Below, in pieces: positions 3,001 through 6,000 of a stretch of DNA of 25,301 nt (position 1 is the first letter of the stretch; the number at the start of each line of letters is the position of its first letter). This stretch comes from a virus (taxonomy: Duplodnaviria > Heunggongvirae > Uroviricota > Caudoviricetes), in IMG/VR virus record IMGVR_UViG_2579779076_000012, positions 1 to 25,301 of that record. One strand, given 5' to 3'. The position numbers are program-made.

Positions 3001-6000
3001 CTGTCCTTGAGGTCAAACGACCATTCACGACCAAACAACCTGAACACAATAAACACTCTGACGATGAAATATCGAAGTAGCAGACCTGCAATAAGTCCAA
3101 TACCTCCACCAGCCCATACATCAGGTGACCCCAGTTCAGGAGGGAGATTTACCATTAAATTTCCTTGTAAGACGCTCTCAATCGGATTCTGACACAAAAA
3201 AGTACCTGACCTTATGAGTGACCTGAAGAGGCTGTTTAGCTCGTTACAGGGCGATTGAAGAGGTCTGTGTGCAATGCAAAACATGCGACCAAATACATAG
3301 CCACGCCTTTTCTATTTTCCCCTCTCTCATAGAACCATTATACCACAGATGTTAATAAAATGTTAAAAATACTTGACATTAGCCTTTGAAAATGCTAGTA
3401 TTGTATATATAGTTTAACAGAATAATAACATCTTATGAGGGTCAGAACATGAATGCAGGATTCAGAATTTAGAGCGATGCTTCAGGCATCAAGAGAACGC
3501 AACAAGCACAACTCCTACGCTTACACAAACAACCCCACCAGCTACGAAGTCCCAACCTTTAGCAAATCCGAACGTAAGAACATTGAAGCGGTCATTCGTA
3601 GCATTACGCCACGAGACAGATTTATGCCAGTACGCAAAACAACAAAGAATACTATTAAAAATTATCTGGCTAACTTTGATTCTTACGAGTAGTTACCAAG
3701 CAAGCTTGATGATATTTTTATTGGGTTCTGTAGAAGTGAAGGCCACCCGAAATACAACAAAAAACTATTTTATCTTCTAAAGAATCTTGATGAAATTAAC
3801 TCATCCGGCGTGACAAATCATCTTCAGCGACAAGCAACCAGACTTAGCTACGAATTACCAAGCGATAAATATTGTGCATTGCTTGCTGTAATGTGTGCAA
3901 AGCTAATTGGTATTGTTGAACATCATATTGTCGTTGGTAATATCAGCCTTACGATTAGTGAGCCAGACTTTGAATTTGACGTATACGCACAAGCAGAGGA
4001 ATTTTAAAATGAAAAACAAACACACTTTAACCCGTATTACAAAGACAGCCTTTGACGAACTTAACCGAATCAAAAACATTACAGGTCTGCCACACTCAGC
4101 AGTGATGAAGCTTGCAATTAACCGTGATATTAACGAGCAGGATTTGCTTAATAGTCGTTTAGAGGCAGCAAGACACCATATCAGGATTAAGCAAGATGAC
4201 CTTGATAGTCTGAAATCCTTAAATGCTTTTGGACTGGATTTAGCAAGGTTACTAAGTATCAAAATTCACAAATTAGCGATGGAGGTTTAATGTATGACTT
4301 TTATAAACATCGTGACCATTTGGTAAGATTTGACGGTAAAGTCTGGAAAGACGTAACACAAACCAATAAGCCCAAGTTTACCCACCAGCAATTAGCCTCA
4401 AGATTTGATATCTGGGCTGAAGCACAAAAAGATAATGGTGATTTCGAGTTTATCAGAGGTTTTGATTATGCTTACGAAAGCGACCTTAAAGACGCCATTG
4501 AATTAATGGAGAACTTCATCTCTATTAAAAATAGTGACAAGCACAAAGCCAACGGTAACAGATACGATAAAGATTTAATCATTGATGCAATCACCAAAGG
4601 ACAATCACAAAGTTATATTTCTGAGAAATACGGCTTATCACGTAGTCAATACTACAAGATTAAAGCGTCTGTGTAAGTCTGTGAGAATGAGTGAGACTCA
4701 AAGATGAGCTACCCTATTACTAAGGTGTCTCACTCCCTCTGTAACCCGCATGGTTACTGGCCTCAGAATGGCTATTTTGGCAGATTTAAGATGTGTTTTT
4801 ATAGGATTTTAAAAATGAATAATTTCCCACTACAGATTTTTATTGATACCGACACCGCCATGATGATTCAGGCTTTCACTGATGTAGGTGTTAGCATTGA
4901 CTTTGATAAGTTGTTAGAGTTAATGGCTGATAATGCGGAAAGCATCTCTAACTTTATTCACTCGGTGGAGTTTAACGAGCCTCGAATGATGTTACCAATT
5001 ACAGACAGTAATATGAAAAGATTGGTTATTGAGCAAACGAACAAATACAGCGTTAGCCCTGAAAGATATCTCAAGGCAGCTATAGCAATTTTGTACGCTG
5101 ACAATATTTTGGTGACGGATTCGAAGGTGGTGCATTAATGGAATTGGTGATTATCTGTTTTGTATTGGTTGGTATGATTGCAGGTGCGTCTATTAAAGTA
5201 TAGATTGCTATCAATCTGTTAAAAGCTGTTGACAAACAACCTTGAGCATGACATAATTGTATATATAGGAAGAGCAATTTTTCCTAAAATCATATTTTCA
5301 ATAATCCGATGGATGGATATTCTGAGTTGGAAAGGTGCAATGCTTTTCGTCATGGCCTCTCTTATATAACTTGAGAGGCTATCTCAAAAAGTCTTTGTTC
5401 ATTCGTTTGAATCCTTTACAGCTTTGCCCTGACTCATGATTAGGGCTTTCTTTAAGAGTTTTTAAACAGGGCTTTTAAAGAAAGTTTTTCCTGAAACTTC
5501 GTTAACGTTATAAAGCAAACCTCCAAAGCCCTTCACAGATTATGTTTAGGGCTTTTCTTAATAGAGCATCTTTAATAAATCGTTAAGTCATCTTCTAAGT
5601 GTATTGGCGTTGAAGGTGCTCTATTAAGAAATAACCACGCTTAGAGGAAATTATAATGACAAACGATTTATATTTTAACGGTCGAAAGATTGATAGCTTC
5701 GGTGACTGGTCGCCACAGACTGAACATCCAGCTATCACTATTCAGCGTAAAGAACACGATGAAAGAATTAAGCTTGAGCAAGAAATCCGAAGGTCACCAA
5801 AGGAAATCATCTTTGTGGCTCCTGAACCTCAAGAGATGCCTGATATTTGCAAGAGTGAAGCATTATTTAATCTTGAGCGGGAATATTACCCACTGCTGAA
5901 AGCACAAAGAATTAAACTTGATATTGCTTACAGCAAAGTTACCTTGATGCAATCAGCTATTGAGCCATCAGAATTTGAGATTCAGGATGAATTGTCACAG

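Follow-up and report, generated by a model that had tools for sequence, protein, structure and literature searches.

A structured plus-strand leader RNA with candidate terminators and a long anti-Shine-Dalgarno hairpin, upstream of the tail-module genes of a putative satellite-like island of Escherichia coli

The region under study lies in the IMG/VR virus record IMGVR_UViG_2579779076_000012 (Caudoviricetes), of which positions 1 to 25,301, one strand of 25,301 nt, were analyzed and are called the window here. It covers about 400 nt between a promoter at 5229 and a gene for a 236-amino-acid (aa) protein starting at 5656. The region was found to be highly structured as plus-strand RNA, and it is best read as the untranslated 5' leader of an operon that holds the tail-module genes of a low-GC island, in which premature termination and an antisense-like block would together silence the tail genes. 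We give this reading a probability of roughly 0.55. As far as sequence and predicted folding can tell, the architecture comprises the promoter, a 5' stem-loop, a 20-nt motif followed by a hairpin (H1), terminators and a long hairpin (A/A') with a tip complementary to the Shine-Dalgarno (SD) region of the first gene (anti-SD). The individual features are listed below.

5229-5257, plus strand: sigma-70 promoter, TTGACA and CATAAT with a 17-nt spacer and TG in front of the -10; 11 of 12 positions agree with the consensus
5264-5655, plus strand: leader RNA of about 392 nt, probably untranslated, with plus-strand-specific excess folding energy
5266-5286, plus strand: 5'-terminal stem-loop, UAGGAAGA/UUUUCCUA, -7.0 kcal/mol
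5330-5349, plus strand: invariant 20-nt motif GAAAGGTGCAATGCTTTTCG, one occurrence in the window
5343-5391, plus strand: hairpin H1, inner stem 5352-5361 with 5373-5382
5426-5446, tail to 5453, plus strand: T1, intrinsic-terminator-like, GCCCUGA...UUAGGGC, -10.5 kcal/mol, then UUUCUUU
5445-5485, to 5490 with UUUUU, plus strand: H2, A/U-rich hairpin of 18 bp, -17.6 kcal/mol
5525-5555, tail to 5559, plus strand: T3, terminator-like, AAAGCCCU...AGGGCUUU, 8-bp stem, -14.0 kcal/mol, U-rich tail
5554-5575 and 5610-5631, plus strand: arms of the long hairpin A/A', 22 contiguous pairs including two G-U
5591-5601, plus strand: anti-SD element UCUUCUAAGUG, tip of A/A', core CUUCUAA in a 7-nt loop
5638-5648 (entry 5638-5658), plus strand: SD region CGCUUAGAGGA, complementary to the anti-SD; start codon at 5656
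5656-6366, plus strand: gene for the 236-aa protein, mostly long helices (predicted), first gene downstream of the leader

Homologues for comparison were taken from Escherichia genomes and gut metagenomes; of 5426 complete E. coli genomes, 472 hold the leader region. Thirteen annotated E. coli loci were fetched and inspected, and their alignment prompted scans for the invariant 20-mer, which returned five genome loci, 99 metagenome loci and 12 viral-contig loci. The five genome loci belonged to E. albertii, Escherichia sp. and Citrobacter sp. and included one chance match. Promoter, motif and downstream gene were present together in 115 loci, corresponding to 107 distinct leaders. Two 20-mer matches, L017 at 7550-7569 and L092 at 3509-3528, were rejected as homologues; both were chance matches in the loop of an unrelated terminator hairpin, one in a Firmicutes (Eubacteriales) metagenome-assembled genome and one in a metagenome contig. 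An exact 20-mer match in about 600 Gb of sequence can therefore be due to chance.

Folding of the plus-strand RNA 5264-5670 gave -128.4 kcal/mol (z = -7.95), compared to -92.4 kcal/mol (z = -2.98) for the minus strand. When both strands were scanned over 801-6100 with sliding 200-nt segments, the only outliers were 5301-5500 (z = -5.7) and 5451-5650 (z = -6.4), both on the plus strand. The specified structure of the 3' module, consisting of A/A', T3 and the anti-SD/SD pairing, was 87.7% paired on a MAFFT alignment of 100 distinct 3' modules. Sliding the 3' partners by 1-3 columns lowered the value to 34-58%, and 0 of 500 shuffles attained 87.7%. G-U pairs in the plus strand become A-C mismatches on the opposite strand or in DNA, and their presence thus points to a structure of the plus-strand RNA. 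The leader is structured clearly more than chance would produce, judged by these folds and alignments. A first-pass annotation of the window had suggested a structured regulatory RNA and proposed folding with covariation across homologues as the check; the helices did stay paired, with compensatory and G-U changes across about 100 homologues, and the word "structured" is supported.

The strongest functional clue of the region is that the anti-SD co-varies with the SD. Complementarity of 9-12 bp between the two was retained in four sequence families, and 85.7% of it was kept on the MAFFT alignment. The elements and the mean energies of the cognate pairs were as follows.

Family a: anti-SD UCUUCUAAGUG, SD region CACUUAGAGGA, cognate mean -17.1 kcal/mol
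Family b: anti-SD CCUCUUCUAAGU, SD region ACUUAGAAGAGG, cognate mean -17.3 kcal/mol
Family c: anti-SD UUCACCUCU, SD region AGAGGUGAA, cognate mean -15.7 kcal/mol
Family d: anti-SD AUUCACCUC, SD region GAGGUGAAU, cognate mean -12.2 kcal/mol

Swapped pairs, used as controls, gave -8.1 to -14.0 kcal/mol, and shuffled SDs gave -9.0 +/- 2.3 kcal/mol. The hairpin that carries the anti-SD is itself exceptional in stability (-33.9 kcal/mol, z = -9.35). The A/A' helix was retained in the four different sequence families with a length of 22-30 bp, reaching 25-30 bp in families b and c. Its 13-bp core was 98.4% paired in 100 sequences; four pairs were changed on both sides, and several positions alternated between U-A and U-G, or between G-U, A-U and G-C. 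A duplex of 22-30 bp is a classic substrate for RNase III. A/A' has the double-stranded RNA length of the RNase III leader hairpins, about two helical turns and nearly uninterrupted, and is a plausible substrate by this measure.

Folding of successively longer prefixes of the transcript left arm A unpaired until A' had been transcribed, after which A/A' formed and the anti-SD was placed in the 7-nt apical loop. Without arm A, the anti-SD:SD hairpin became the minimum-energy fold at -16.9 kcal/mol. A second anti-SD, located 5' of T3, was also considered. It paired with the SD in the ensemble with P = 0.66, yet was dismissed as a composition effect, because shuffling of the stretch 5' of T3 barely altered the accessibility of the SD (0.28 native and 0.35 shuffled, the native value being lower in 21 of 36 cases).

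The promoter at 5229-5257 was the sole promoter-like site found by a sigma-70 scan of the plus strand from 4500 to 6050. The block 5207-5257 was nearly invariant among the homologues, spacer included, and the -35 was TTGACA in 107 of 107 distinct leaders; one further locus (L097) had TTGATA. Transcription is predicted from the position of the -10 to start around 5264-5265, about 7 nt past it. This start site is supported by the 5'-terminal hairpin, because it begins 6-14 nt past the -10 in all 107 leaders. The stem is made from several unrelated sequences, for example GGAUAG/CUAUCC, AGAGAGA/UCUCUCU and GGAAGAG/CUCUUCC. A hairpin at the 5' end is known to act as an RNA stabiliser. The first-pass annotation had described the promoter as being followed by about 400 nt without an open reading frame (ORF), which was confirmed in so far as no ORF of at least 60 aa was found between the promoter and the ATG at 5656. 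The sole ORF-like feature within the leader is a non-conserved upstream ORF (uORF).

The start-site region at 5258-5275 reads TATATAGGAAGAG in the window and TATAGGGAGAG in many homologues. Compared by eye, it fits positions -4 to +6 of the T7-group phage promoters together with the start of their stem-loop leader; the upstream specificity positions, also by eye, do not fit. Strings of the type TATATATAGG, similar to the start-site region, are found at 1047-1088 and inside a 95-nt tandem repeat further upstream.

The 5' stem-loop is followed by a mosaic sequence of variable makeup, in which small hairpins and a (GATG)n microsatellite occur. Tetranucleotide repeats are located at 5308-5318, (GATG)n, and at about 5398-5408, (TCAT)n. 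Their copy number differs among the homologues, GATG ranging from about 2 to 6 units, and this variation alters the spacing of the structured elements as well as the reading frame of the uORF. The 20-nt motif folds on itself into a 7-bp hairpin, GAAAGGU/GCUUUUC, and is also legible as an SD-like sequence plus ATG. It was invariant in 14 of 14 homologues derived by BLAST, at 71-97% identity. Its invariance in the larger metagenome set is by construction, since the 20-mer was the search key, and only the 14 BLAST-derived sequences give independent support for its conservation. In the inner stem of H1, four of the eight pairs predicted by RNAalifold were changed on both sides, many G-U, A-U and G-C swaps were seen, and pairing was retained between variants such as GCCUCUC/GAGAGGC and GCCUAUUUAG/CUAGAUAGGC. 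A possible outer stem of H1 pairs CUUUUCG with CAAAAAG.

T1 and T3 both have the composition of intrinsic terminators, i.e. a G+C-containing stem-loop with an immediate U-tract, conserved in homologues, and termination is predicted at both. The stem of T1 has 7 bp, four of them G-C. The stem of T3 was 92% paired across 100 sequences, with a loop that varies by inserts of about 11 or about 30 nt. As an intrinsic terminator H2 is atypical, owing to its A/U-rich stem in front of the U-run; a G-U to G-C change in one homologue (L006) retained the pair. H2 contains the exact 10-bp complement reported in the first-pass annotation. The complement exists, and its coordinates had to be shifted by one position, from 5447-5456 and 5476-5485 to 5446-5455 and 5475-5484; it forms the core of a 13-nt arm pair. 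Among the 107 leaders, 76 had T1 followed by a U-tract, 87 had T3 followed by a U-rich tail, and 91 had one or both of these. The number of terminator-like hairpins in tandem ranges from one to three. Operons under the control of attenuation or antitermination are laid out in this way, with a strong promoter and up to three terminators. Two likenesses to phage lambda elements, both noticed by eye, were rejected. The T1 stem GCCCU/AGGGC resembles boxB, with a loop that does not fit, and TGCTCT in arm A' resembles boxA, but is buried in the duplex and is lost in families c and d.

According to the model that we favor, most transcripts in a resting cell would end at T1, H2 or T3, and the short products would be about 190, 225 and 295 nt long. 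Any transcript leaking past the terminators would carry the A/A' hairpin. Its tip, either excised or acting between molecules, would pair with the ribosome-binding site and block translation of the first gene. RNase III is a candidate for the cutting of A/A', the 22-bp duplex being a suitable kind of substrate. The tail-module genes would in this way be made leak-proof by two layers, premature termination and the anti-SD block of the first ribosome-binding site. To be fully expressed, these genes would require termination to be overcome; the most plausible trigger is a Felix O1-like helper phage infecting the cell, or a regulator encoded by the island.

Several observations weigh against this model. 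The start site, the termination and the short RNAs are all predictions. Termination does not seem to be universal in the leader family, because 16 of the 107 leaders hold just one hairpin with a poor U-tail and about 30% are without T1 and H2. Independent covariation events are few, because there are only about four sequence families. For the intact read-through RNA, the equilibrium ensemble gave a probability of only 0.04 for pairing of the SD with the apical anti-SD, and the complementarity thus makes sense only if the tip is released or acts intermolecularly. Processing or action in trans is needed by the model because A/A' keeps the anti-SD at its tip (-34 versus -17 kcal/mol). Finally, no antiterminator-type match was obtained for the early island proteins in Pfam, PHROG, NCBIfam or PADLOC, and no trigger was found.

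The PR'-tR' unit of the lambdoid phages is the clearest precedent for a strong promoter followed by terminators. The leader shares with the lambdoid PR'/tR'/6S-StxS/Q system a promoter of the always-on type, an intrinsic terminator within about 190 nt, structural genes downstream and a predicted short by-product. In Stx phages the short PR'-tR' transcript became the small RNA (sRNA) StxS (PMC7547250). Unlike the lambdoid system, the leader has up to three terminators instead of one and an added SD/anti-SD layer, it is located in a small island related to virulent Felix O1-like phages and not in a lambdoid prophage, and there is no sequence similarity. Neither a Q-like gene nor a Q-binding element was identified for the leader; the early island proteins had no match to a Q-family antiterminator in Pfam, PHROG or NCBIfam, and Q promoter elements are unrecognisable without a known protein.

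The C4 antisense RNA of P1/P7 immI (RF01695) is encoded on the same strand, upstream of the ribosome-binding site of its target, and is processed by RNase P. Similar to C4, the leader has a stem-loop in the same transcript with a loop complementary to the SD region of the next gene. It differs from C4 in having one recognition loop instead of two and a basal stem that is a 22-30-bp duplex, suggesting RNase III rather than RNase P. Furthermore, the C4 model did not hit the leader in a search allowing E up to 10, though it finds a genuine C4 at 20690-20777. A scan of the window against Rfam 15 at gathering scores gave no family for the leader and matched C4 and isrK elsewhere only; a permissive scan of 5130-5700 was equally negative for isrK at E up to 10. 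Sub-threshold matches in the leader were to generic long-hairpin (miRNA-precursor) models, far under the cut-offs. Long hairpins cleaved by RNase III just upstream of a ribosome-binding site are known from the lambda N leader and from T7 early and late mRNAs. These are also near-perfect duplexes, at least 20 bp long and situated 8-20 nt in front of the SD; in contrast to A/A' they are without an SD-complementary loop, and cleavage of A/A' is only predicted.

In P4 immunity, a CI RNA that arises from the leader by processing is summarised as pairing with seqA and seqC, leading to premature termination (PMC4825925). The likeness consists in a satellite-type element, an untranslated leader past a constitutive promoter, silencing by premature termination, and direct repeats in the leader with one complementary copy. 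The differences are that the complementary copies of the island are explained by local terminator hairpins, that the middle repeat is unconserved and that no homology to isrK/seqA or C4/CI is seen. In the case of Gifsy-1 IsrK, a short sRNA and a read-through mRNA that is inactive in translation arise from a single promoter, and the short form activates the long one (PMC4825925). The island leader resembles IsrK in having a terminator in the leader, with two isoforms predicted, and a structurally controlled ribosome-binding site on the read-through RNA. The two are not homologous, and no complementarity was found between the short RNA of the island and the 3' module. By analogy, the leader may work like a lambdoid late-operon lock combined with a same-strand antisense of the C4/CI type, and is a member of neither family.

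The main alternative, which we hold to be possible on a distinctly lower footing, is that the principal product is one or more free-standing sRNAs. These would run from the start site to T1 (about 190 nt), with longer forms ending at H2 or T3, and would act in trans on host, helper-phage or island mRNAs; read-through would be secondary, and a dual role is compatible with it. A strong invariant promoter followed by terminators with U-tails speaks for it, the invariant 20-nt motif behaves as a recognition sequence and not as a purely structural one, and StxS (PMC7547250) and IsrK (PMC4825925) are precedents. However, no convincing target was found within the island; the best duplexes of the motif with the plus strand of the island were long and gapped, and pairing with gene starts was weak. 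The RNA is also invariably placed directly upstream of the 236-aa gene, and the most strongly co-varying feature, the anti-SD/SD pair, lies past all terminators and concerns the adjacent gene.

It is unlikely that the hairpins are plain operon-end terminators or insulators for the upstream early genes, combined with an RNA-stabilising 5' hairpin and with no conditional read-through. The tail genes would then be expressed by constant leak or from a helper-specific promoter invisible to the sigma-70 scan. No terminator lies between the early genes, which end at 5203, and the leader, so T1-T3 would stop early-gene transcripts too, and a variable number of terminators among the homologues fits such a role. 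On the other hand, the promoter is upstream of the terminators in every homologue, and its own transcripts would consequently also be stopped. No further sigma-70-like promoter was found between T3 and the ATG, and the SD-matched anti-SD and the conserved 5' domain are left unexplained.

Attenuation by a leader peptide was judged improbable. The 20-nt motif would here be the ribosome-binding site and start (ATG 5340) of the uORF, which encodes MLFVMASLI in the window. Its translation would remodel H1 and, in the style of the trp attenuator, the 1:2, 2:3 and 3:4 pairings of the segments GCCCUGA (5426), AGGGCUUU (5442), AAAGCCCU (5525) and AGGGCUUU (5548). In its favor, the SD-like GAAAGGUG is invariant, as are the ATG and the first three codons, and the inverted AAAGCCCU is able to pair with either upstream AGGGCUUU copy in place of its own partner. 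The invariance extends, however, to third codon positions, which indicates a constraint at the RNA level. The uORF encodes 43 different peptides of 5-50 aa, with a stop codon anywhere from within H1 to past T1, and a conserved leader peptide was ruled out, neither the peptide sequence nor the stop position being conserved. The 2:3 alternative is without covariation support, and segments 1 and 2 are missing from about 30% of the leaders.

The first-pass annotation had further described three direct copies and one inverted copy of AGGGCTTT(T/C)(T/C)TTAA and had named a protein-binding array as one explanation. The count holds for the core AGGGCTTT, with direct copies at 5442, 5468 and 5548, an inverted copy at 5525 and no other copy in the window. 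It does not hold for the extended 14-mer, which has two copies, at 5442 and 5548, and none more at up to two mismatches. The four core copies span 114 nt (5442-5555), compared to 1.23 copies expected in the whole window; four copies anywhere were attained by 2 of 100 shuffles. Two matches to the 14-mer are unremarkable (23 of 100 shuffles). The copy at 5468 runs on as TAAAGA and the inverted copy as GGAGGT.

All four copies are located in hairpin arms. Copy 1 is the 3' arm of T1, copy 2 sits in the 3' arm of H2, and T3 has the inverted copy as one arm and direct copy 3 as the other. Conservation is lacking for copy 2, most homologues having AGAGCTTT or AGAACTCT at this position. A 23-nt direct repeat, 5436-5458 and 5542-5564 (83% identical), covers the 3' arm of a terminator, its U-tract and the start of the next hairpin, and from the sequence T1+H2 looks like a tandem duplicate (paralogue) of T3+A/A'. 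This duplication would account for the repeats without a binding protein, and the idea of a true repeat family or protein-binding array is not supported. A DNA-level element, either an array of operators or iterons or an origin, has clustered direct and inverted 8-mers and an A/T-rich context in its favor and is nevertheless very improbable: successive direct copies are unevenly spaced (26 and 80 nt), one of the copies lacks conservation, the extended repeat has just two copies, units conserved in sequence and spacing independently of pairing were not seen, the helices tolerate replacement of their sequence if pairing is kept, G-U pairs included, and folding is strongly asymmetric between the strands. 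An invertible promoter switch was also considered, as a perfect 11-nt inverted repeat (5207-5217 and 5687-5697) brackets the leader. It was rejected as probably due to chance, because the full 11 nt are present in 1 of 115 loci and most loci have none of it.

Downstream of the leader, the 236-aa gene is followed by a 70-aa ORF, a tape measure gene (6715-8781; PHROG 4036, E = 6e-91; Pfam TMP_3) and a gene for a Dit-like baseplate protein (8955-9728) that is 82% identical to Felixounavirus proteins. The 236-aa protein gave no match in Pfam, PHROGs, NCBIfam or PADLOC, nor by tblastn against phages. It has 3117 homologues, all of which are unnamed or labelled "transposase"; this RefSeq/PGAP label appears to be a spread annotation error without support. 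The AlphaFold model shows long helices and is of low confidence (predicted local distance difference test, pLDDT, 68; predicted template modelling score, pTM, 0.44), and a Foldseek comparison of the model to viral structures returned nothing at E <= 0.001. The gene order is mirrored in the tail module of an Ounavirinae phage, where two chaperone genes, the tape measure gene and a gene for 256 aa correspond in position to the 236-aa, 70-aa, tape measure and ~257-aa genes of the island. No sequence similarity was found between the first two tail-module proteins of the island and the positionally equivalent chaperones, and the phage tail module of equal gene order is without a matching leader. 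In 13 of 13 annotated E. coli loci the layout is a 107-109-aa gene, 485-608 nt of intergenic sequence, a 234-236-aa gene, a small ORF and the tape measure gene.

The G+C content of bases 1 to about 9900 is 34-40%, and that of the remaining window is 41-54%. The low-GC part had no DNA match in phage or plasmid collections. Among 5426 complete E. coli chromosomes, 472-490 (about 9%) have it, at 80-97% identity. In strain AR_0369 the element is about 11.5 kb long and splits yecE; one of its ends holds a small recombinase, the other a large serine recombinase. We infer that the low-GC region constitutes an integrative island of compact size, similar to a satellite and with links to Felix O1-type (Ounavirinae) phages. 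No published description of such a satellite or island was found in the literature searched. The island extends from 1 to about 11300 in the window and from 5881 to 16862 in L001, and some alleles have HNH endonuclease genes among the early genes.

A few further observations concern the neighborhood of the leader. A tiny ORF at 5138-5203 on the plus strand overlaps the stop codon of the upstream 107-aa gene (TAATG) and encodes the hydrophobic 21-aa peptide MELVIICFVLVGMIAGASIKV. It was unannotated in the RefSeq loci inspected. A hydrophobic peptide of 21 or 25 aa is found at this place in 124 of 125 homologous loci, with up to nine DNA sequences for one peptide, and the ORF is probably a real small membrane protein, because the peptide is kept despite differing DNA. 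The 2.6-kb region at about 850-3450 has no ORF longer than 105 aa on either strand and is nevertheless conserved, with 87-95% identity, among about 540 of 5426 E. coli genomes. RefSeq annotates nothing there in six of the eight top matches listed, and a mosaic form was seen in 73 fetched loci. This region holds the 95-nt tandem repeat (2670-2850) and a divergent promoter-like pair, 3337-3366 on the minus strand and 3373-3413 on the plus strand. It showed no excess RNA folding energy on either strand and no Rfam match, and may be an origin, packaging region or control region of the island. In the higher-GC part, adjacent Rfam matches to isrK (61.6 bits) and C4 antisense RNA (82.4 bits; 20690-20777) were obtained at 20589-20777 on the plus strand. 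IsrK is a structural homologue of the P4 SeqA RNA (PMC4825925). The segment looks like a P4/P1-type RNA immunity region of a different mobile element adjoining the island.

A more far-reaching version of the leader reading can be offered tentatively. The leader might be the helper-sensing switch of E. coli phage satellites that form a hitherto undescribed family, live as parasites of virulent Felix O1-like (Ounavirinae) phages and have their own tape measure and baseplate-hub genes. It would be constitutively transcribed and locked by its terminators, and the self-targeting, C4-like anti-SD hairpin would be freed by RNase III in the manner of a microRNA precursor. As the hairpin RNA accumulates, it would impose a threshold that could be passed only if a helper induced a burst of read-through, and the short terminated RNA would have a second role as an sRNA, either in immunity or directed at the host.

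No other RNA in the scanned left 6 kb of the island is as structured as the leader, which is located where expression of the tail module would be decided. If the proposed model is true, it would represent a new RNA family that unites attenuation with a same-strand antisense hairpin. The island itself may be the larger novelty. It is carried by about 9% of complete E. coli genomes, with proteins annotated only as "hypothetical" or, unsupported, as "transposase". Felix O1-type phages are widely used in typing and biocontrol, and islands of this kind could affect their performance. If the leader couples expression of the island to Felix O1-type infection, it would offer a handle on how satellites of virulent phages sense their helpers.

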